A DNA stretch of 64,000 bases from Patescibacteria group bacterium. Its GTDB lineage: Bacteria > Patescibacteriota > SICC01. The notes beneath the pieces are model-generated. The model searched no databases and was not told the origin of the DNA. It was given only the letters and a program-made list of their open reading frames with translations. The stretch spans positions 194,219 through 258,218 of the forward strand of contig JBBDXB010000006.1 in NCBI GenBank assembly GCA_040902515.1. The letters run 5' to 3'. This document shows, one piece after another, positions 9,392-43,266 of this stretch. The number at the start of each line of letters is the position of its first letter. Positions within the stretch are counted from its first letter, which is position 1. The translations under genes were made by a program, and so were the position numbers.

Positions 9392-9670
9392 ATGCGCTCA
9401 CTGCCGCTGTTTTCCGTACCGGAGTACCGCGCGGTGCTCTGGAACGGGTTCTGCTGCCTCGGCCCCCTGCTGGGATCAGCGATCGCCATCCTGCTGTTAC
9501 CGCTGATCTTTCCCGAGACGCCGACAGGTGCCGGATTCCTGCTCGTCTTCGGTTCCCTCATCGCTCTCGGCAGCATCGTGCTTTCCGCCATCAACCTGAT
9601 CGCGTTCAGCGAGGCGGTGGGAAACGCGATTGGCCATTACCGCCGTTACGGCTACGACCTGCGGGAATGA
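9392..9670 (+). CDS. small membrane protein (92 aa)
   Basis: AAAGGAG SD 5 nt before the ATG; two to three TM helices; second of a tandem pair. Confidence 0.5.
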   Translation: MRSLPLFSVPEYRAVLWNGFCCLGPLLGSAIAILLLPLIFPETPTGAGFLLVFGSLIALGSIVLSAINLIAFSEAVGNAIGHYRRYGYDLRE

Positions 9671-9739
9671 AGACCAAACGGGCCGGACCCTTCCTCGATA
9701 CTCGATGAAGACCGGCCCGTTTTTCCTATCCACCGATTG

Positions 9740-10762
9740 CTACTTCCGCTCCACCGTCCAGCTCGAATGAGGAGCCTCGCATTCACCCGGGGATTCGCTG
9801 TTGCTGTACATGATGGAGTCCTTCTGCGGCGAATGACAGAACCCCAGATTGTGGCCGATTTCATGCTCGGTAATAGTGGTCAGGCGTTCATCCGAACTCC
9901 CCTTGATCTCGTCAATCCGATATTCGATATAGCACGGTTCAGACAATTCCGGTGACAGCGGAGCTACCGCGGCGGCTTTCGGGCTGGACAGCCGATTGGA
10001 GCCCCAGAGCTCGATGTCACCGCCGCACGGAGGGTCGTAGCCGCGTTCCTGCCATCGCTCAAGCGCCTCGCTGACCGCCCGCTCCACTCTCGGAGATCCC
10101 TCCAGCCGGGTGGAAACCGTAGGAATCTGCGCCCGTTTCTGCGGATCGACAGGCAGAGGCGTGGGCCCGTAGATCTCTTCGGCGATGATCTCCGCCTGGA
10201 GCATCGCCGCCTCACGTTCCCGGTCCAAACCCTCCAGGTAATCCAGCTCCAAGTGGCTGAGTCCGTGCATGATTTCCGGTAGCGGGAGAGGCTCGTCGGC
10301 CATCTCAGCGCTCATCCGCCAGCCCAGGTAGTCGATCACGGAATATCGCGGAAAGCCTTTGCTGAGAAAGAATTCCTCGATTCGCAGCTCGGCATCCACG
10401 GACGCTTCGAGGGGGCCACGCAACTCGGCAGGCACCAGCGGAAATCCCAGTTGGTCCAGGTCCCATTGGTCGATTTCCCGTTCGATCTCGAATCCGCGCG
10501 CGATCCTGGCATCTTCGAACAGCTCCCGGCCAATCCTGTTGACCCTCATGGATCGATACGACGACAGGCCGCCGTAGTGCTCGACCGGGCGGCTCTCGGC
10601 TACGTGTGGAAGCTCGGGAGCAGCCGGAACGGGCGGCTCGAATACCGGGCGCGGCGACCGGACTTCATTCATCTCGGGTGGTGCCGAGGGGCCGCCACAC
10701 TTCGAGAGAGCACCCGCACACGCGAGGCCCAAGACGGCTTTCGTGACCCGCGAGGACCGCAT
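9740..10762 (-). CDS. secreted or lipoprotein zinc metalloprotease, metzincin-like (HExxHxxGxxH plus Met-turn)
   Basis: C-terminal HEIGHNLGFCHSPQKDSIMY (zincin/metzincin motif with SIMY Met-turn); signal peptide MRSSRVTKAVLGLACAGALSKCGG at the chosen start; the alternative ATG at 10822 lies 8 nt after the ribozyme; the 620-aa ORF-track version has a 280-aa R/P/G-rich junk N-terminus that I reject. Confidence 0.6.
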   Translation of the reverse strand: MRSSRVTKAVLGLACAGALSKCGGPSAPPEMNEVRSPRPVFEPPVPAAPELPHVAESRPVEHYGGLSSYRSMRVNRIGRELFEDARIARGFEIEREIDQWDLDQLGFPLVPAELRGPLEASVDAELRIEEFFLSKGFPRYSVIDYLGWRMSAEMADEPLPLPEIMHGLSHLELDYLEGLDREREAAMLQAEIIAEEIYGPTPLPVDPQKRAQIPTVSTRLEGSPRVERAVSEALERWQERGYDPPCGGDIELWGSNRLSSPKAAAVAPLSPELSEPCYIEYRIDEIKGSSDERLTTITEHEIGHNLGFCHSPQKDSIMYSNSESPGECEAPHSSWTVERK

Positions 10763-10829
10763 GCGATCAAGGACCGAGAACTCGGGCTGCGAATCGTGAT
10801 GGGAACTGGCTTCGCTGTGCATTGTTGAT

Positions 10830-10880
10830 ACCGTTTCGACCCGAACTTCCCGGATCTCATCAGGCGCTAGGCGCGACGGC
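10830..10880 (-). ncRNA. type III hammerhead ribozyme, copy A (in the 5' leader of the metalloprotease gene)
   Basis: Minus-strand RNA gucgcc-GUC^GCGC-CUA-GCGC-CUGAUGAG-AUCCGGGAAGUUCGGGUC-GAAA-CGGU. All invariant core nucleotides present (C3 U4 G5 A6 N7 G8 A9, G12 A13 A14, A15.1-U16.1, H17=C); G10.1-C11.1 closes stem II; stem I is a 4-bp hairpin, stem II 7-8 bp, stem III 5 bp and open. Cleavage predicted after C17, between 10875 and 10874. Confidence 0.75.
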
Positions 10881-10941
10881 GACCGACGGGGTGTTACGAA
10901 AAGTGATTTCATAACAGGCCCGTCGGTCAACCGGGATGCAG

Positions 10942-11508
10942 CTAGGCGGCGGCGAGGACGAGGTCCTGCGCGGACGTCTGGTCGGTCATGGTCGCAGGCG
11001 GGGTCTCGTACCGGCGCCAGCGGCCGCGTACCAGTCTCTCCAGGCGGTAGTCCGCCTGCATCTGGCTGCCGCGAAGCTCCTTGGTGGACTGGCCGGTGCG
11101 GGAGCTGGGCCGGAGCCTGATCCCAATCAGTCGGTCCAGCTCGCGGAGGTCCTTCCCCTGCCAGAAGGGCTCGGGGCTGAACGTCATCTGGCGACCGCCG
11201 TCGCGGACCGTCAGCACGCGTACGGCCCTGACCTCGGGGAGTGTGGCGAGGGCCTCGTCGTAGGCCTTCGTGTACCCCCAGCACGTCGCCGTCAGTCCCT
11301 TCTCGTTCTGCTCGACCTCGAGGACCAGCCCATCGCCGGGTCGCGGCAGCTTCAGCTGCGGCCAGTCCGTTCCGACCACGACCACGCCGTCCTGGATCAG
11401 GACCTGACCGCCGGCGGCGAGGCGGAAGAAGACCTTCCGTCCGTTGTGGATTTCGGCGAAGCCGTACAGACCCTTCTTCTTGTAGTACTTGACGATGCCT
11501 CGCAGCAT
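10942..11508 (-). CDS. cold-shock domain protein with a roughly 120-aa C-terminal extension
   Basis: Start trimmed to MLRGIVKYYKKKGLYGFAEIHNGRKVFF (CSD RNP motifs); AAGGAG SD; the C-terminal 120 aa is of unknown function. Confidence 0.7.
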   Translation of the reverse strand: MLRGIVKYYKKKGLYGFAEIHNGRKVFFRLAAGGQVLIQDGVVVVGTDWPQLKLPRPGDGLVLEVEQNEKGLTATCWGYTKAYDEALATLPEVRAVRVLTVRDGGRQMTFSPEPFWQGKDLRELDRLIGIRLRPSSRTGQSTKELRGSQMQADYRLERLVRGRWRRYETPPATMTDQTSAQDLVLAAA

Positions 11509-11809
11509 GACGATCACTCCTTGGTTGTTGCGATTGCGGCGTACCTTGTGGCAGCCGATCCACCCGCCACCGACGGGCATATCGGCTACCACAAGACTGC
11601 ATCCCGGAATGGTAATGAACCGTGCCGCGGGCATTCCGCAGCCTGACTTTATACCACGGTTAAGGTATTTTATCAAGCTCCGGAGAGTCCAGCGCAGAAG
11701 AAAAAGGCCACCAGATATCAAAAGTAAGATATATGATGGCCGCTCCCGCGACATGACTGGGTTCAGCCACACGGACCACAAGGCGCGGGTTCGGGGTCCG
11801 TTAAATGTT

Positions 11810-12127
11810 TCAAATGTCTGCTGGCGTGCGTTGGCGATGAAGCGCCTTAAGCAGAAGGGTCGCGATCAGGCCGAAGTATCCCCCGACCACTCCTCCTACC
11901 AGAACAGCAGCTCCGATCTCCTCACGGCGTTGATCCGGAGGTATCCGCTTCCAGCCGTCAGACGTGGCGGCCAGTGTCGCCAGGGCTGTTCCTGCCGGAA
12001 TGCCGCCCATGACGGCGCCTCGCAGTGCCGCACGGACGACCGATGCAGGCCGGTTGATCCACCCCAGCAGCACCACGGGTACAGCGATGATCAAGCCGAT
12101 CAACGTGCGTTCGGCGTTTATCTTCAT
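11810..12127 (-). CDS. small membrane protein, GlsB/YeaQ/YmgE (transglycosylase-associated) family-like
   Basis: 105 aa; Gly-rich TM segments (GAAVLVGGVVGGYFGLIATLLL). Confidence 0.5.
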   Translation of the reverse strand: MKINAERTLIGLIIAVPVVLLGWINRPASVVRAALRGAVMGGIPAGTALATLAATSDGWKRIPPDQRREEIGAAVLVGGVVGGYFGLIATLLLKALHRQRTPADI

Positions 12128-12158
12128 GCATCCTCCTTGTGTTGTGGTTGGTCGCCGC

Positions 12159-12524
12159 TCAACGGGTTCTGAGCCTGTTAGGGGCCGGGAGTGACCATCG
12201 GCGCGTGAATGCCGCGATGACGATGCAGAGCAACCCGAGAATCGTCATCATGTACGGCCCTTGCAGCTCGATCGCGATGCCGGTGAACACCAGGCCGCAG
12301 TAGGTGAACAGCGCCCACAGATACTTCGGCGCGATGATCAGGCCGCCCACCAGCACGCTGAGCGCCAGGATGCCCCAAATGTCTGCATCCTTTGATGCGG
12401 CGGCCCAGATGCCGAGGCCGACGATCGACATCAGGACCACGGCAAGTGTCGCGGTCCGCGTAAGCGGGTTCTTGCAGTCCATGGTCATCGAACGGATGAC
12501 ATCGCTGTCGTAGATCCGTTGCAT
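12159..12524 (-). CDS. hypothetical membrane protein (121 aa), immediately downstream of ribozyme copy B
   Basis: AGGGGG SD 6 nt before the ATG; three to four TM helices. Confidence 0.55.
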   Translation of the reverse strand: MQRIYDSDVIRSMTMDCKNPLTRTATLAVVLMSIVGLGIWAAASKDADIWGILALSVLVGGLIIAPKYLWALFTYCGLVFTGIAIELQGPYMMTILGLLCIVIAAFTRRWSLPAPNRLRTR

Positions 12525-12607
12525 GTGAACCCCCTGATGGGTCGTGTTTTCCGGAAACGGTAAGGTGCGGCAGACTTAGGTAAATCATACCAGTCCGCCG
12601 CACGGAA

Positions 12608-12658
12608 CCCCTTTCGACCCGAACTTCCCGGGTCTCGTCAGTCGCTAGGCGAGAGGGA
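12608..12658 (-). ncRNA. type III hammerhead ribozyme, copy B
   Basis: Minus-strand RNA cucccuC-UC^UCGC-CUA-GCGA-CUGACGAG-ACCCGGGAAGUUCGGGUC-GAAA-GGGG. Same architecture and length as copy A. Differences are compensatory: 1.1/2.1 U-A versus G-C, 10.3/11.3 C-G versus U-G, 15.2/16.2 G-C versus C-G, 15.5/16.5 G-U versus U-G; the unconstrained N7 is C versus U. Confidence 0.75.
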
Positions 12659-12755
12659 GCCGAGAATGAAAACTGGAGTTACCAGAAACTATTCTCGGCG
12701 GGCAAGCAGAAAGGATGATATGTCCTGATTCTTGCCGTGGTTTTTTAGGGTGGTG

Positions 12756-13298
12756 CTACGGGTGGATTCTCACCAGCTTTCTTGCCACCTTGCACCAGTC
12801 GTTCTGTGGTCCGGGCATAGCGGCCCTGTAGAAAGGTACCGTTCTCGGATATCCCTTCGGCCCGACCAGCCGTGCCTCGAACAGATTCTGCTGGCGGCGG
12901 TTGTACTCCGCACGGATATTGCGGAACGTTGATGAGTACGCGATCGCCGTATCCTCTACGAGGGTCGGATCCACCGACGTGCGCTCACCGCCGTCACCTA
13001 CCTGGCAAGCCGTCTCGGCTGCTGAGATCATATCCTCCCAGGTGCCGATGATCGCCGTGTGCTGGTCCCGGACGTTGTCCGGTCCGGTGATGCGCTGGGC
13101 CTCGCCGCCCCAGAGGGAGATGAAGCCGATGGCCTGACCGAGCAGCCCGATCGCGAGGACCAGGGCCAGTAGGGACACGAACCACTTGAACAGCGTGCGC
13201 CCCGGTCGGTCGGCCAGGTTTCCTGCCTGCCGCTCCCCGAAACTCGAGGTGCGGCGCTCTAGACGGTCGTAGCCGTCCGGATCCCGATCTCGTGACAT
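12756..13298 (-). CDS. hypothetical single-pass membrane protein
   Basis: 180 aa; charged N-terminus, one TM (WFVSLLALVLAIGLLGQAIGFISLW), C-terminal domain. Confidence 0.45.
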   Translation of the reverse strand: MSRDRDPDGYDRLERRTSSFGERQAGNLADRPGRTLFKWFVSLLALVLAIGLLGQAIGFISLWGGEAQRITGPDNVRDQHTAIIGTWEDMISAAETACQVGDGGERTSVDPTLVEDTAIAYSSTFRNIRAEYNRRQQNLFEARLVGPKGYPRTVPFYRAAMPGPQNDWCKVARKLVRIHP

Positions 13299-13339
13299 AG
13301 TTACCTTTCTCTGCGTCGTGAGGTGGTTCGGTCCGCGGG

Positions 13340-14002
13340 TTACCCCGTGGCGCCAAGCGCCCCCTCAAGGATTCGCTGCGCCTCCTGACGTGCCGCCCGG
13401 CACTCGCCGGACTCGGGATCGTCAGCGCAACCGCCAGCCTGCAGTGCCTCCTGGGCCTGACCCTGCGCCGTCCTGACGCCTGAGTCTATGCTCAGGGACA
13501 CCTGGGTGACTTGCCGCTGGAACTTCGTGAGTGCGGTGGTGCAGAACGTCGGCATGTTGAAGAAGTCGACGTACTGCCCGCCGGGTGTGAAACCGTACCG
13601 GTACGGCGGCGGTGATCCGTGGAACATCCCGTCCACTGACGGAAGCTCTGGGTAGTAGGTGCCGCTATTGGAGTACTGCTTCACTACCTGATTCGGGAAG
13701 AAGCTCACGCTGGAGCTGGTCAGCTTGCCGGCCACCGGGACGGTGACGATCGGCGCTGACGCGTTACCCCAGGTCGTCGAGCACCAGATGATGGTGTTCG
13801 GCGAATCATAGAGCTTCTGCGCCCGGTTGTAGTTGTTGTACTCGACGTCGTTCTTGGGCTCGTAGGCCGTGCGGTTCTGCCGCTTCCGATCGAGCTTGCT
13901 GAACTGCTGGTCCTGCTTGGTCGTCTCACCGCCGCAGGCCGCGAGACCCACGATCAGGCTAATCGCCAGGAGACCGACGAGCAGCTTTTGTACGAAGGAC
14001 AA
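13340..14002 (-). CDS. hypothetical lipoprotein
   Basis: 220 aa; signal peptide with lipobox VGLAAC; Asn/Tyr/Ser-rich mature domain. Confidence 0.55.
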   Translation of the reverse strand: MSFVQKLLVGLLAISLIVGLAACGGETTKQDQQFSKLDRKRQNRTAYEPKNDVEYNNYNRAQKLYDSPNTIIWCSTTWGNASAPIVTVPVAGKLTSSSVSFFPNQVVKQYSNSGTYYPELPSVDGMFHGSPPPYRYGFTPGGQYVDFFNMPTFCTTALTKFQRQVTQVSLSIDSGVRTAQGQAQEALQAGGCADDPESGECRAARQEAQRILEGALGATG

Positions 14003-14242
14003 GGGTACCCCCTTCTCTCGATTTCCTGGTGATGGGTATCACCAAGGCCGTTTCCGGCGCCCTGAAGTCATCTGCTCTGATAACTCCGTGGCGCCGGAAA
14101 CGTCACTGACTTGTTAAGGTCGCTCTTGTGGCACAAAAGCTTGTAACCATAGCATTTTTTAATAATCTGCGTCAATGGCGCCATAAAATCCTACCACATC
14201 AAAACGGCCGGTAGTGACGTTGTGCTCTGCTACGCTATTTAC

Positions 14243-15352
14243 ATGTCCCTCTCCATCGGTATCGTCGGGCTTCCGAACGTCGGCAAGTCCACGCTCTTCA
14301 ACGCCCTGCTCGAACGGGCGCAAGCCGAGAGCGCCAACCGGCCGTTCACCACGATCGAGCCGAACGAGGGCGTGGTCGACGTCCCTGATCCGCGGCTCGC
14401 GAAGCTCGCCGAGCTGGTGCAGCCGGAGAAGACCATCCCGGCCACCGTGACGTTCACCGACATCGCGGGGCTGGTCGGCGGTGCGAGCAAGGGCGAGGGC
14501 CTCGGTAACAAGTTCCTGTCCCACATCCGCGAGACCAGCGCGATCGCGCTGGTGGCCCGCTGCTTCGAGGACCCGCAGGTCACCCACGTGGCGGGACGGC
14601 TCGGTCCGGTGGACGATCTGCGCACCGTCCTGCTCGAGCTGATCCTCGCCGACCAGCAGACGTACGAGAAGCTCCTCGGCTCGCTGGAGAAGGAGGCCAA
14701 GGGTAATCCCGATACCGCCGAACGGCTGGAACTGTTGAAGCGGATCGGCGCGGCGTTCGACGCCGAGAAGCCGGCACACAGCGTGACCTTCGACGCCGAC
14801 GAACGGAAGGCGCTGGCAAAGGGCGCTCCGCTTCCCTTCATCACCGCCAAGCCGATGCTGGTGGTGGCGAACGTCGGGGAAAACGACGTAGCCAAACCCG
14901 GGACCAGTTCCTTCTACCAGGAGGCCGAGCGCTGGGCCGAGGAGCAGGGCTTCGGCATCGTCGCCGTCTCCGCGAAGATCGAGGCGGAGATCGGCGTGCT
15001 CCCGCCGGAGGAACGCGCGGCGTTCCTGGAGTCGGTCGGCCTCAAGGAGCCGAACCTGAACCGCTTCATCCGCGCCGGCTACGACCTGCTCGACCTGATC
15101 ACCTTCTACACCGCCGGACCGAAGGAGGTCCGCGCCTGGCCGATCCGTCGCGGCAGCAGTGCCCCGCAAGCCGCCGGCACCATCCACGGCGATTTCCAGG
15201 ACAAGTTCATCCGCGCCGAGGTGATCGCCTACGACGACTTCGTGACCGCCGGCAGCGAGTCAGCCGCCCGCGATGCCGGTAAACTCCGCGCCGAGGGCAA
15301 GGACTATACCGTGCGGGACGGCGACGTCATCCACGTCCGGCATGGGGCTTAG
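14243..15352 (+). CDS. ychF: redox-regulated ATPase YchF (Obg-like GTPase family)
   Basis: Start trimmed to MSLSIGIVGLPNVGKSTLFNAL; G-domain motifs; C-terminal TGS-like region. Confidence 0.9.
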   Translation: MSLSIGIVGLPNVGKSTLFNALLERAQAESANRPFTTIEPNEGVVDVPDPRLAKLAELVQPEKTIPATVTFTDIAGLVGGASKGEGLGNKFLSHIRETSAIALVARCFEDPQVTHVAGRLGPVDDLRTVLLELILADQQTYEKLLGSLEKEAKGNPDTAERLELLKRIGAAFDAEKPAHSVTFDADERKALAKGAPLPFITAKPMLVVANVGENDVAKPGTSSFYQEAERWAEEQGFGIVAVSAKIEAEIGVLPPEERAAFLESVGLKEPNLNRFIRAGYDLLDLITFYTAGPKEVRAWPIRRGSSAPQAAGTIHGDFQDKFIRAEVIAYDDFVTAGSESAARDAGKLRAEGKDYTVRDGDVIHVRHGA

Positions 15353-40863: not shown

Positions 40864-40933
40864 CCCGAGTATCCGTAAAATTATGTCAACTTAGCACTTT
40901 TTTATGCGTTTGTCAAGCCCCGGGCGGACTGTG

Positions 40934-41005
40934 TGGCAGTGGCAGGATTCGAACCTGCGACCAACAGCTTATGAGTCTGCTGCTCTACCGCTGAGCTACA
41001 CTGCC
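40934..41005 (-). tRNA. tRNA-Met (anticodon CAT), elongator-type with G1-C72 paired
   Basis: GGCAGUG acceptor, anticodon loop CUCAUAA, T-arm GCAGG-UUCGAAU-CCUGC; no encoded CCA. Confidence 0.8.
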
Positions 41006-41235
41006 GGAGGCTCGCATACAGTATACGAGTAACAGGCATGGCGGGTACATGCGGCACGAGCATCAATCGGATTGTCGCACACCCGCCCGGAAGCACAACG
41101 AAGCGACTACAGGAAACGACGTCCGGAATCGTCCCTCTCCCTCAATGCACCTCGGCGAGATGCGCTCAGGGGGTGCCTACTCTCAATCCTGATGCGCTGA
41201 TACGCGGATCAAGAGTAGGCTTGGTCAGCAATCCG

Positions 41236-41655
41236 TCAGCCAGAAGCCATTGCCTCCTCCCAGTTGTACAGTGTTGGCTGGTACGGCGAGCACTCCTCAG
41301 TGAAGAGGAGAGTCATGAACGTGATGACCGTGAACGCCAGTGGCATCGTGATCGACGAGAAAACAGCGATTTGCGCGCCGGAAGGATTCTCTTGGGCGAT
41401 CATCGGAATGCTGCAAAGCCAAACGATCACCCCGATTACGAGGAACATGATGATGCTGCCGACAAGCCAATTATCCGGGCGGGCGTGCCACTGGAAGAGC
41501 ACCGATACGACGAAAACCCACAGGCCGGCTTGGAACAAAAGGACGGGGAGCTCCCACGTGACGCCAACCGAGACACAGATGCTGGCCGCGATCCAAAAGC
41601 CCAAGCAGAACCAACCCGAAACCTCCACTGCCCGATTGAGGGCTGTTTTGCTCAC
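41236..41655 (-). CDS. hypothetical polytopic membrane protein; lower GC, located between two tRNA genes
   Basis: 139 aa; four TM helices; by eye lower GC than the surroundings. Confidence 0.45.
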   Translation of the reverse strand: MSKTALNRAVEVSGWFCLGFWIAASICVSVGVTWELPVLLFQAGLWVFVVSVLFQWHARPDNWLVGSIIMFLVIGVIVWLCSIPMIAQENPSGAQIAVFSSITMPLAFTVITFMTLLFTEECSPYQPTLYNWEEAMASG

Positions 41656-41747
41656 GACCTACCTCCTGTGGTTTGTAGTGTGCCGCGTGATTTGAACGTG
41701 CTGGCTCCAATCTAACAAACTGCCCCGTCCGTGACAGGGCATCCTTG

Positions 41748-41819
41748 TAGCGGGGGCAGGATTCGAACCTGCGACCTCGTGGTTATGAGCCACGCGAGCT
41801 GCCACTGCTCCACCCCGCA
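41748..41819 (-). tRNA. tRNA-Met (anticodon CAT), initiator-like
   Basis: UGCGGGG-UG-GAGC... closely resembles bacterial tRNA-fMet (CGCGGGGUGGAGCAGC...); unpaired 1-72 position (U1/U72); anticodon arm CGUGG-CUCAUAA-CCACG with two G-C pairs next to the loop; no encoded CCA. Confidence 0.75.
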
Positions 41820-41857
41820 ATGCAAGTAATAAGTATAGGTTCCGATCCGAGGGACGG

Positions 41858-42760
41858 TCAAGGCGCGATGGCCACGGCAGCTGCACCTACCACACCGGCC
41901 TGTTCCAGCTTGCTCACGGATACGGTCACTTTCTCCCACGGCCCCTGCATCGCGCGGCGACCGGCTTCCTGCATCGCCAGGTCGAGGTACAGGTCGGCTT
42001 CTTCGGCCAGCCCGCCGCCGAGCACGAGCTGCCGGGGTTGGAACGTATTGACCGCATTGGCGATTCCCACGCCCAGCCTGACGGCGAAACGCTCGAAGAC
42101 CGTCACGGCCGTCCGATCTCCCGAGCGGGCGGCCCGGGCCACGTCCAACGCGGTGATCGAACCCTGTCGCTCGAGCAGACCGGCCAGGTACTCCTCCGCT
42201 TCCGGCGCCGCTGCCGCGGCGGTAGCCTCGGCCACCAGGCCGTTTCCGGACACGAGATCATGCAGCCGCCCCGGATTGTAGCTGGCCGCCGGACCCTCGT
42301 AGTCATAGTCGATGGCGCTGTTACCAAACTCGGAACCGAGACCGTCGGCACCGCGGAACAAGGCCCCGTCGATCACTACGCCCGTCCCGAAGCCGGTGCC
42401 GAGCGTGAACATCACGAGGTGCCTGGCCCGGCGCGCGCGGGCTTCGCCGAAAGCCGCGCAGTTCGCGTCGTTCTCAAGCCGCACCGTACCGCCGAGTTTC
42501 TTCTTGAGATCCGGGAGTAGGGCCGGGCCGGAATGCGGTAAATTGCTTATTCCGTACGGCATGCCGATCCCGACAGCGGACGGGGCGACTCCCGGAGCGG
42601 CAGCCGTCACGGCTTCGGCGATGGCATCCACCAGCGCTTTCTTCGTCTCGTGCGGAGTAGCCCGGACGGTCAGGTTCCGGATCCGGGTACCGGTCACCGT
42701 GCCGGCCGCGATCTTCGTCGCCCCGACGTCCACGCCCACGACCGGTCTCCTAGGCGTCAA
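41858..42760 (-). CDS. ROK family sugar kinase (glucokinase/N-acetylglucosamine kinase-like)
   Basis: 300 aa; N-terminal ATPase motif VGVDVGATKIAAG; ROK family pattern. Confidence 0.8.
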   Translation of the reverse strand: MTPRRPVVGVDVGATKIAAGTVTGTRIRNLTVRATPHETKKALVDAIAEAVTAAAPGVAPSAVGIGMPYGISNLPHSGPALLPDLKKKLGGTVRLENDANCAAFGEARARRARHLVMFTLGTGFGTGVVIDGALFRGADGLGSEFGNSAIDYDYEGPAASYNPGRLHDLVSGNGLVAEATAAAAAPEAEEYLAGLLERQGSITALDVARAARSGDRTAVTVFERFAVRLGVGIANAVNTFQPRQLVLGGGLAEEADLYLDLAMQEAGRRAMQGPWEKVTVSVSKLEQAGVVGAAAVAIAP

Positions 42761-43139
42761 AGAAATGCTCCCACCACTGCTCCGGATTCGAGGGCGGCGT
42801 TTCCGGCCGCGCCCGCTCCCCCGGTTGGGTGATGCTTACCAACTCCTCGCTCGGCGGCTTCGGCACCACCACGACCCGCTCCCCGGGCCGCTGGTATCCG
42901 AGACGGGCCCGCGCCTCCTTTTCCTTGTACGCATCGGTCCGGTAGTACGCGAGCAGACTCCGGAGCTCGAGATTCCGCTGCTCCAGCTCGTCCAGTTCGG
43001 CGGACAGCAGCTTCTGGTCCTGGTGGACGCGGTAGTTCTCGTAGATCAGCTTCCCGGACCCCAGCAGGAGATACCCGAACACGAAGAGGCCGAACACCAC
43101 GATGGTGCGACGCTTGACCCATTCCATACGATCCGTCAT
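42750..43139 (-). CDS. ftsB: septum formation initiator FtsB/DivIC family protein
   Basis: 129 aa; N-terminal TM then coiled coil (LLSAELDELEQRNLELRSLLAYYRTDAYKEKEARARLGY). Confidence 0.75.
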   Translation of the reverse strand: MTDRMEWVKRRTIVVFGLFVFGYLLLGSGKLIYENYRVHQDQKLLSAELDELEQRNLELRSLLAYYRTDAYKEKEARARLGYQRPGERVVVVPKPPSEELVSITQPGERARPETPPSNPEQWWEHFFDA

Positions 43140-43190
43140 GTCCCCAGCTTACCGCTAGTAGCGGCACCCTAGTAGCGATAGGCTGAGACG

Positions 43191-43266
43191 GGGCCCGTAG
43201 CTCAGCGGTTAGAGCACCCGGCTCATAACCGGGCGGTCCTAGGTTCGAATCCTAGCGGGCCCACCA
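43191..43266 (+). tRNA. tRNA with CAT anticodon; candidate tRNA-Ile2 (lysidine-modified) by its acceptor-stem pairs; CCA encoded
   Basis: GGGCCCG acceptor with C4-G69 and C5-G68, as in E. coli tRNAIle2; anticodon arm CCCGG-CUCAUAA-CCGGG; the three CAT tRNAs in this window would then be fMet, Met and Ile2; tilS is 6 kb away. Confidence 0.7.

Follow-up and report, generated by a model that had tools for sequence, protein, structure and literature searches.

Two predicted type III hammerhead ribozymes in a Patescibacteria chromosome belong to a compact, hairpin-linked subfamily found almost only in Saccharibacteria

Results

Two hammerhead elements between same-strand genes

The DNA considered here is a 64,000-nucleotide (nt) stretch from a Patescibacteria group bacterium (GenBank contig JBBDXB010000006.1, positions 194,219 to 258,218), referred to below as the window. 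On its minus strand, a gene for a Matrixin-type metalloprotease and a gene for a small hydrophobic protein are each preceded by a short element, designated copy A and copy B, respectively, and each element is itself preceded by another gene on the same strand (Table 1). The product of the open reading frame (ORF) upstream of copy B had no match in Pfam, NCBIfam, or PHROGs. An earlier reading of the sequence (the original prediction) described both elements as complete type III hammerhead ribozymes in the 5' leaders of the protease and membrane-protein genes. The analysis reported here supports the first part of that description and modifies the second.

Read 5' to 3', copy A (10882 to 10827) is UC GCCGU C GCGC CUA GCGC CUGAUGA GAUCCG GGAAGUU CGGGUC GAA ACGGU AUC, and copy B (12660 to 12605) is GC UCCCU C UCGC CUA GCGA CUGACGA GACCCG GGAAGUU CGGGUC GAA AGGGG UUC. 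The complete core predicted at 10830-10880 and 12608-12658 is there in both: C3 U4 G5 A6 N7 G8 A9, G12 A13 A14, the pairs A15.1-U16.1 and G10.1-C11.1, and C17, which places the predicted cleavage sites where they had originally been proposed. Stem I is 4 bp with a CUA loop, stem II is 6 bp (plus a G·U), and stem III is 5 bp. Both copies have the type III topology, with stems I and II closed by loops and stem III open to the flanking sequence, and their alignment to the Hammerhead_3 model covers model positions 1 to 54. The 20 nt common to both copies are CCGGGAAGUUCGGGUCGAAA, as had been noted. The differences between the copies had been listed as compensatory or as lying at N7; the list is accurate, except that at 10.3/11.3 (U·G to C-G) only one side of the pair changes.

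The two copies are spaced 1,778 nt apart. A 30-nt degenerate pattern matched copies A and B alone in the window and had 0 matches in 100 shuffles. The minimum free energy (MFE) fold of copy B is the hammerhead fold. The distances to the downstream genes were also as predicted: copy A ends 8 nt before the in-frame ATG of the protease gene (10822), and copy B ends 83 nt (originally about 85 nt) before the ATG of the membrane-protein gene (12524).

TABLE 1 Features of the copy A and copy B loci in the window
Feature	Position	Strand	Basis or remark
Hammerhead copy A (type III)	10830..10880	-	Sequence; Hammerhead_3 (81-nt slice); model R1; family covariation
Copy A stem III	10880-10876 / 10834-10830	-	Sequence
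Copy A C17	10875	-	Sequence
Copy A stem I	10874-10871 / 10867-10864	-	Sequence
Copy A loop I, CUA	10870-10868	-	Sequence
Copy A CUGAUGA	10863-10857	-	Sequence
Copy A stem II	10856-10851 / 10843-10838	-	Sequence
Copy A loop II, GGAAGUU	10850-10844	-	Sequence
Copy A GAA	10837-10835	-	Sequence
Copy A predicted cleavage site	10875/10874	-	Position of C17
Helper hairpin A, GACCGACGGG...CCCGUCGGUC	10881..10928	-	48 nt; last base immediately 5' of copy A stem III
Matrixin-type metalloprotease gene	9740..10822	-	Pfam Peptidase_M10, E = 5.7e-7; downstream of copy A; alternative start 10762
190-aa gene	10942..11514	-	ORF list; between promoter-like site and copy A; not in L001
Promoter-like TTGATA-17 nt-TATAAA (putative)	11648..11676	-	L001 alignment (there TTGATT-17-TATAAA)
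Terminator-like hairpin GGCCAUCAUAUAUC...GAUAUCUGGUGGCC, then UUUUU (putative)	11701..11741	-	Sequence; conserved in L001
Hammerhead copy B (type III)	12608..12658	-	Sequence; Hammerhead_3; model R1; MFE fold
Copy B stem III	12658-12654 / 12612-12608	-	Sequence
Copy B C17	12653	-	Sequence
Copy B stem I	12652-12649 / 12645-12642	-	Sequence
Copy B loop I, CUA	12648-12646	-	Sequence
Copy B CUGACGA	12641-12635	-	Sequence
Copy B stem II	12634-12629 / 12621-12616	-	Sequence
Copy B loop II	12628-12622	-	Sequence
Copy B predicted cleavage site	12653/12652	-	Position of C17
Helper hairpin B2, GCCGAGAAU...AUUCUCGGC	12659..12699	-	Fold; 0 nt from copy B stem III; kept in L011, L015, L029
Hairpin B1, GGCAAG...CUUGCC	12701..12736	-	Fold; four-genome alignment; first domain of the conserved ~100-nt element before copy B
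Class 2 module (stop-codon region, hairpins B1 and B2, hammerhead B)	12608..12760	-	blastn of flanks; alignment
Upstream ORF, 180 aa	12756..13298	-	ORF list; stop codon 97 nt before copy B
Extended -10-like motif TGGTATGAT	12584..12592	-	Between copy B and the membrane-protein gene; also in L001; not reported by the consensus scan
Small hydrophobic-protein gene	12159..12524	-	Downstream of copy B; orthologue at L001 9409-9765

Covariance-model searches

When the whole window was scanned with Rfam at the gathering threshold, there was no hammerhead match, and a 2.1-kb slice scanned at E ≤ 10 also gave none, owing to speed filters. On 81-nt slices, Hammerhead_3 (RF00008) was the only family matched, with 28.8 bits for copy A (E = 6.6e-5) and 23.2 bits for copy B (E = 0.0025). 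Rescaled to 64 kb, these E-values become about 0.05 and about 2. The covariance-model check proposed along with the original prediction therefore had a divided outcome, naming the expected family on the slices but giving scores below gathering and nothing on the whole window. Rfam by itself leaves the hammerhead identity of both elements undecided. The failure to reach gathering reflects the seed of the RF00008 model rather than the ribozyme class.

A covariance model, R1, was built from the alignment of the family described below, with copies A and B included in the training set. In the window R1 scored 75.9 bits for copy B and 73.6 bits for copy A, and the next best match scored 10.7 bits. 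In 364 kb of related loci, R1 located one more hammerhead, a divergent one at L025:3306-3365 on the plus strand of a Saccharibacteria contig (20.9 bits). This type III-like element reads UCCGGA-CAA-UCCGGA / CUGAUGA / ... / GAAA, with 6 bp in stem I and a wobble pair at G10.1-U11.1.

Relatives in Saccharibacteria and covariation of the three stems

The protease encoded downstream of copy A is 100% identical to the NCBI entry [quoted passage not shown] and 83% identical to a protein (P0002) from a Candidatus Saccharibacteria metagenome-assembled genome (MAG). The contig of the latter, L001, was found through the protease protein and thus independently of any RNA pattern. It is syntenic with the window and has both ribozymes at the corresponding places, 681 nt apart, with the core intact, AUA in place of CUA in loop I, and one change in loop II. 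Conservation as a functional RNA had been predicted, and these orthologues keep the whole core while the flanking sequences diverge or are replaced.

Further relatives were sought with a genome-collection scan, in which stem I was fixed and stem II was free, and a metagenome scan, in which the family stem II was fixed and stem I was free. Combined, the scans yielded about 55 copies, 45 of them distinct. The hosts of copies with a paired stem II were MAGs labeled Saccharibacteria, Saccharimonadia, or Patescibacteria, or were unclassified, and there were several copies per genome, with a maximum of six (MAG CAYZCS01). Twelve of the 34 genome-scan loci were in other taxa (Pontiellaceae, Chromatiales, Clostridia, Fibrobacter, Alphaproteobacteria, Parasutterella, Sorangium, Sphingomonadaceae, Hallerella, and Caulobacter) and were rejected as chance matches; they lack a paired stem II and resemble coding or gene-junction sequence. 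Among the chance matches to the stem I pattern were L007:1615-1659, L013:1189-1230, and L036:7284-7321 (Clostridia, Parasutterella), whose shared sequence GGGGGAGCUGUCGC(R)UAGCG(R)CUGA(K)GAGG reads as a protein C terminus followed by a stop codon and a Shine-Dalgarno sequence, and which are not hammerheads.

When the hammerhead structure was imposed on the 45 distinct sequences, 97.8% of the cells were standard pairs. Two-sided changes were found in 11 of the 15 pairs (3/4 in stem I, 4/6 in stem II, and 4/5 in stem III), although many copies are closely related, so that counts over copies overstate the number of independent events. The covariation score was 0.535, compared with 0.170 ± 0.013 for shuffles, none of 500 of which reached that value, and with at most 0.127 when the pairing partners were slid by 1 to 3 columns. 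The search for additional copies and covariation suggested with the original prediction was thus productive, with all three stems covarying. The one-sided changes are G-U wobbles, and the structure is therefore that of an RNA read from this strand.

The positions next to the core were as expected for hammerheads. Pair 1.1/2.1 was UA in 20 sequences, GC in 13, AU in 8, CG in 3, and UG in 1, while 10.1/11.1 was GC and 15.1/16.1 was AU in all 45. No mispair was present beside the core at any of these three pairs, in agreement with the acceptance criteria for hammerheads of Perreault et al. 2011 (PMC3088659), which copies A and B both pass. The core C3 U4 G5 A6 N7 G8 A9 and G12 A13 A14 was present in the window copies, in the L001 orthologues, and in 45 of 45 distinct relatives, but the patterns that retrieved the relatives demanded the core, so that most of its conservation within this set is by construction. 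In columns left free by every search pattern, U16.1 was present in 45 of 45 sequences, and position 17 was C in 29, U in 15, A in 1, and G in none.

The common design of the subfamily is a 4-bp stem I with an NUA triloop, a 6-bp stem II with a GGAAGNU loop, and an open stem III of 4 to 6 bp. Loop II was invariant as GGAAGNU when the scan placed no constraint on stem II, and when stem I was unconstrained, every loop I was NUA apart from one ACA. The original prediction expressed concern over the shortness of stem I, and stem I is indeed 4 bp in nearly all members. Yet both loops are nearly fixed in sequence, which points toward, not away from, a specific docking of loop I with loop II that would offset the 4-bp stem. 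Tertiary contacts between stems I and II are required for hammerheads to cleave quickly at physiological Mg2+.

Several observations weigh against identifying the elements as ribozymes. In addition to the limits on the core and copy counts given above, both Hammerhead_3 scores fall short of the 48.5-bit gathering score and the whole-window scan misses both copies; the MFE structure of copy A is an alternative fold (-19.2 kcal/mol, 2.1 better than the -17.1 kcal/mol of the hammerhead fold); and stem I, at 4 bp with a triloop, is smaller than is usual among fast natural hammerheads. The low Rfam scores, the very short stem I, and the slightly more stable alternative fold of copy A are also what might be seen if the elements were noncatalytic conserved repeats, such as protein-binding RNAs or DNA-level sites, that resemble hammerheads by chance or as decayed relics. 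This seems most improbable, however, because no copy has lost any core position, and that holds for the two orthologues that were found independently of RNA patterns; U16.1 is invariant and G is absent from position 17 in 45 sequences; and the covariation tracks the three hammerhead helices exactly, its G-U wobbles being mismatches if read on the opposite strand. The comparative evidence strongly supports identification of both elements as hammerhead ribozymes, with catalysis being predicted.

A hairpin and a same-strand gene precede the ribozymes

The 80 nt before stem III were folded for each of the 45 distinct sequences. In 39, the MFE structure ended 0 to 2 nt from stem III (0 nt in 24), compared with 36 to 47% in controls in which the folded windows were shifted by 15 to 300 nt or shuffled. 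The mean upstream MFE was -27.2 kcal/mol, versus -16.1 kcal/mol for shuffles and about -22 kcal/mol for coding windows. These helper hairpins are 27 to 80 nt long, and their sequences differ widely among copies. For copy A, the MFE fold of 10826-10930 (minus strand) had a free energy of -50.6 kcal/mol (z = -5.66).

Gene orientation was also regular on the upstream side. The upstream gene was on the ribozyme strand for 37 of 42 copies, and the downstream gene was on the same strand for 29 of 41 and convergent for the other 12, with the reservation, which counts against what is built on these numbers, that gene calls at the loci were crude (greedy longest ORFs). The distance from the ribozyme to the downstream start was scattered, from 4 to more than 150 nt. 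Upstream genes included those for Band_7 proteins (two cases), purE/purC (two cases), topoisomerase I (topA), the C-terminal domain of RpoA, a sugar transferase, and a DDE transposase, and many others had no family match. A canonical intrinsic terminator started within 16 nt after the ribozyme in 6 of 48 copies. Thus, the constant partner of the family is upstream, a same-strand gene with an abutting hairpin, rather than downstream. At one locus, a run of tRNA genes begins 34 nt after the family member (L014:69-119), the first tRNA gene being at 153-225.

The arrangement of genes and hairpins makes it more likely that the module cuts transcripts between genes than that it merely trims 5' leaders. 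The leader role proposed originally, in which the elements would process the leaders of the protease and membrane-protein genes, stripping the triphosphate end and upstream context and leaving a structured 5'-OH cap that tunes stability or translation, seems rather unlikely as an account of the family, but it draws support from the copy A locus. In such a role, the elements would be naturally occurring equivalents of the ribozyme insulators used in engineering. In the window, copy A is intercistronic, being separated from the promoter-like site (11676-11648) by the 190-aa gene and a 48-nt hairpin. In L001, which lacks the 190-aa gene, ribozyme A' starts about 35 nt after the conserved promoter-like site and ends 8 nt before the protease ATG, a distance to an in-frame ATG that window copy A shares. 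The two arrangements differ by an indel of ~734 nt (about 10885-11618, minus strand) that carries the 190-aa gene together with the 5' half of the helper hairpin, has CGGT at both bounds, and is absent from L001. Judged by its position in the sequence, copy A' of L001 is a true 5' leader. Its place in a short leader, preceded by a mere 4-bp hairpin, tells against a uniform intergenic role, and not every copy fits a 3'-end role.

Two other features favor leader processing. Homology between the window and L001 begins at -5 for copy B and at -11 for copy A and continues into the downstream genes, so that in this lineage the ribozyme has kept its downstream gene through a change of upstream partner, and the majority of downstream genes are on the same strand. 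However, a leader role cannot be general because 12 of 41 downstream genes are convergent and 6 of 48 copies are followed directly by an intrinsic terminator, which leaves no gene to lead. Furthermore, the spacing to the downstream start varies, whereas that to the upstream hairpin is constant at 0 to 2 nt; window copy A is preceded by a gene of the same transcription unit; and the -10-like motif TGGTATGAT is conserved downstream of copy B. It is possible that this motif is part of an independent promoter of the membrane-protein gene. The leader placement is thus supported in part: it describes L001 copy A', whereas window copy A is intercistronic and the role cannot extend to the family as a whole.

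A consensus promoter and terminator scan of 9500-13500 reported no promoter and no relevant terminator. The promoter-like site at 11648-11676 was missed because position 6 of its -10 element is A, and the terminator-like hairpin at 11701-11741 was missed because the simple scan allows no mismatch or large loop.

Conserved units upstream of copy B and the possibility of a mobile repeat

Copy B forms the 3' end of a module of ~150 nt (-107 to +44 from the cleavage site), designated class 2, that is 91 to 96% identical to modules in three other Saccharibacteria MAGs. The part upstream of the hammerhead (12659-12760) begins at the stop codon of the preceding ORF. In those three MAGs, the unit is preceded by a purE/purC gene, and the window protein encoded before copy B is unrelated to the L011 PurE/PurC protein. 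The occurrence of the same unit behind unrelated genes indicates that the module is portable between genes. At the copy B position of L001, the upstream module is of another type, designated class 1, and homology with the window runs only from -5 to about +459.

The class 1 unit extends ~108 nt before the hammerhead and has the structure ACGGCCCCAUAGUCUGGCCUCUCACGAGGUGGCC...GGGGGAUUCCGGCAUG..GAGAUACCCAUCUC..CAUGCCGCCCCC. It was present at L001:9150-9262 and in L024, L027, L035, L053, L064, L062, L038, L022, L023, and L031, with compensatory changes in its hairpins, sharp bounds at about -113 and +44, and copies that are 100% identical at different loci. The conserved upstream units matched no Rfam family at gathering (17 loci), and slices gave nothing credible at E ≤ 10. 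The ~100-nt units of both classes may be small RNAs with ribozyme-made 3' ends.

Alternatively, the modules could be mainly dispersed repeats of a selfish or recombinogenic kind, such as small nonautonomous mobile elements, that spread to gene 3' ends, with the ribozyme serving the element and not the host genes. Units of ~152 nt (-108 to +44) are identical in L053 and L064 with different flanks, L022 and L023, both from one MAG, show no difference in the 127 nt that can be compared, units of 91 to 96% identity stand behind unrelated genes, and homology between genomes breaks exactly at the ribozyme edges. Contigs also end near copies, as they would at repeats, in L022, L023, and L031 (50 to 85 nt upstream), and L014 starts 68 nt upstream of its copy. 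The alternative that rRNA operons cause contigs to end at the modules was rejected because there were no rRNA matches in the loci. One hammerhead, found with the same sequence on four metagenome contigs (L052:2270-2320, L054, L055, and L061), lies 151 nt after a DDE transposase gene (DDE_Tnp_1_4; 808-2118) and is possibly inside an insertion sequence. However, the alignments show neither terminal inverted repeats nor target duplications, and at most loci no transposase or reverse transcriptase accompanies the module. Divergent genomes retain copies, with different hairpins, behind genes of the same families (purC and Band_7), and the wide variation of hairpin sequence at a fixed position resembles the outcome of functional selection. 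Homologous recombination between 50-nt repeats can account for the breakpoints. A repeat that exists for its own spread is therefore quite improbable as the main explanation, and cleavage between genes by a portable module is preferred.

Chromosomal setting of the locus

The window is chromosomal and syntenic with L001, with S6, a GerE-family protein, ychF, the ribozyme locus, an integrase, BacA, and gamma-glutamyl transpeptidase in both. The integrase is a tyrosine recombinase encoded ~2.6 kb from copy A in convergent orientation, at a position conserved in both genomes. A phage origin is unlikely. PHROGs matched only the integrase and a P-loop kinase. A megablast search of 8 kb against phage records found no match, and three pattern scans of viral contigs found no copy, only one AT-rich chance match without stem II (L002). 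The idea that the elements are integron attC-like cassette sites, suggested by the hairpin behind each gene and the tyrosine recombinase nearby, was rejected: the recombinase is convergent, 2.6 kb away, and conserved in position, and the structure is a strand-specific RNA with G-U pairs.

A minus-strand ORF at 14159..15187 was considered as the upstream gene and rejected as spurious, being antisense to ychF (14222..15352, plus strand; MMR_HSR1 and YchF-GTPase_C domains). It follows that the minus-strand unit with copy B begins after 14222 and is divergent from ychF. Elsewhere in the window, three tRNA-Met (CAU) genes are clustered within 2.3 kb (40933-43266), one of them on the plus strand and the other two on the minus strand.

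Discussion

The comparison of sequences suggests that copies A and B are probably type III hammerhead self-cleaving ribozymes of a compact, multicopy subfamily found almost only in Saccharibacteria, and that the module formed by hairpin and ribozyme cuts between cistrons. Under this interpretation, the region would be cotranscribed with the upstream gene and the ribozyme would fold, with the helper hairpin probably stacking on the short stem III, where it may help folding, and with the two conserved loops docking. Self-cleavage would occur after C17. The upstream RNA would then retain the hairpin and a tail of ~6 nt (5 to 6 nt of stem III) with a 2',3'-cyclic phosphate, a compact and probably exonuclease-resistant 3' end, and the downstream RNA would begin with a 5'-OH followed by the ribozyme body. 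Where a same-strand gene follows, as it does at both window copies, cleavage would uncouple the two cistrons: copy B would separate the ORF at 13298..12756 from two small membrane-protein genes, and copy A would separate the 190-aa gene from the protease gene. Whether the 5'-OH stabilizes or destabilizes the downstream RNA would depend on the RNases of the host.

The predicted outcome is comparable to that of the glmS and twister ribozymes in the untranslated regions (UTRs) of mRNAs, in that self-cleavage would yield a downstream fragment with a 5'-OH and an upstream fragment with a 2',3'-cyclic phosphate that differ in stability. In Bacillus subtilis, the 5'-OH product of glmS cleavage is degraded by RNase J1. 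The folds are different, and glmS is ligand dependent and located in a 5' UTR, whereas no ligand-sensing domain is evident here. In insulators of the RiboJ type, a type III hammerhead between the promoter and the ribosome-binding site strips the upstream context, and a hairpin downstream of the ribozyme serves the ribosome-binding site. L001 copy A' has the same promoter-ribozyme arrangement, and a hairpin lies beside the ribozyme in both systems, but the hairpin of the Saccharibacteria modules is upstream and would remain with the 5' fragment.

The subfamily shares with the viroid, satellite, and genomic type III hammerheads of RF00008 the CUGANGA...GAAA core, G10.1-C11.1, A15.1-U16.1, an NUH triplet, and a three-way junction in which loops cap stems I and II and stem III is open. 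It differs in its scores (23 to 29 bits versus 48.5 bits), in its 4-bp stem I, closed by a fixed NUA triloop, and its 6-bp stem II, closed by a fixed 7-nt GGAAGNU loop, in the helper hairpin against stem III, and in its hosts, as the copies are in Saccharibacteria chromosomes.

Bacterial hammerheads that flank genes, often near prophage integrases, have been described, and a role in processing polycistronic RNA has been suggested (PMC3088659; PMC6765202). The loci described here resemble them in that same-strand ribozymes bracket one to three genes and an integrase is found within about 2.6 kb of copy A. They differ from the prophage hammerheads of PMC3088659 in lying on a syntenic chromosome in which the integrase is the sole phage protein, in the lack of copies in the viral collection, and in having housekeeping genes upstream. 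Pseudoknot loop contacts are described in the consulted passages of PMC3088659, which contain no account of a hairpin abutting stem III like the one found here.

A literature search found no paper linking hammerheads with Saccharibacteria, TM7, Patescibacteria, or the candidate phyla radiation (CPR); this holds within the literature searched and is no proof of novelty. In the consulted parts of the supplements of Perreault et al. 2011, nothing was found that makes this link. The subfamily seems not to have been catalogued before, the distinguishing points being the host lineage, the nonphage housekeeping context, the minimal and fixed stem I and loop design, and the hairpin abutting stem III. 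Because the current Rfam model misses these elements, CPR genomes are underannotated for ribozymes. The tiny stem I and loop I, together with the conserved loop II, may define a compact solution for tertiary docking that is useful in ribozyme engineering.

Thousands of genomic hammerheads are known, and their function in bacteria was still considered undefined in a 2019 review, in which roles in 3' UTRs and polycistronic transcripts are suggestions only (PMC6765202). Saccharibacteria are ultra-small episymbiotic bacteria with reduced genomes, and their modules sit behind ordinary housekeeping genes. The regular gene-hairpin-ribozyme architecture, repeated several times in a genome of roughly 0.6 to 1 Mb, makes the function of bacterial hammerheads testable. 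It is conceivable, as a tentative extension, that hairpin-hammerhead modules are a genome-wide device for forming mRNA 3' ends and for punctuating operons behind the housekeeping genes of Saccharibacteria. If so, a 3' end capped by a hairpin and bearing a 2',3'-cyclic phosphate would replace, or be added to, the end made by an intrinsic terminator, the fate of the downstream RNA would be uncoupled, and bacterial hammerheads would have a defined cellular function outside phages.

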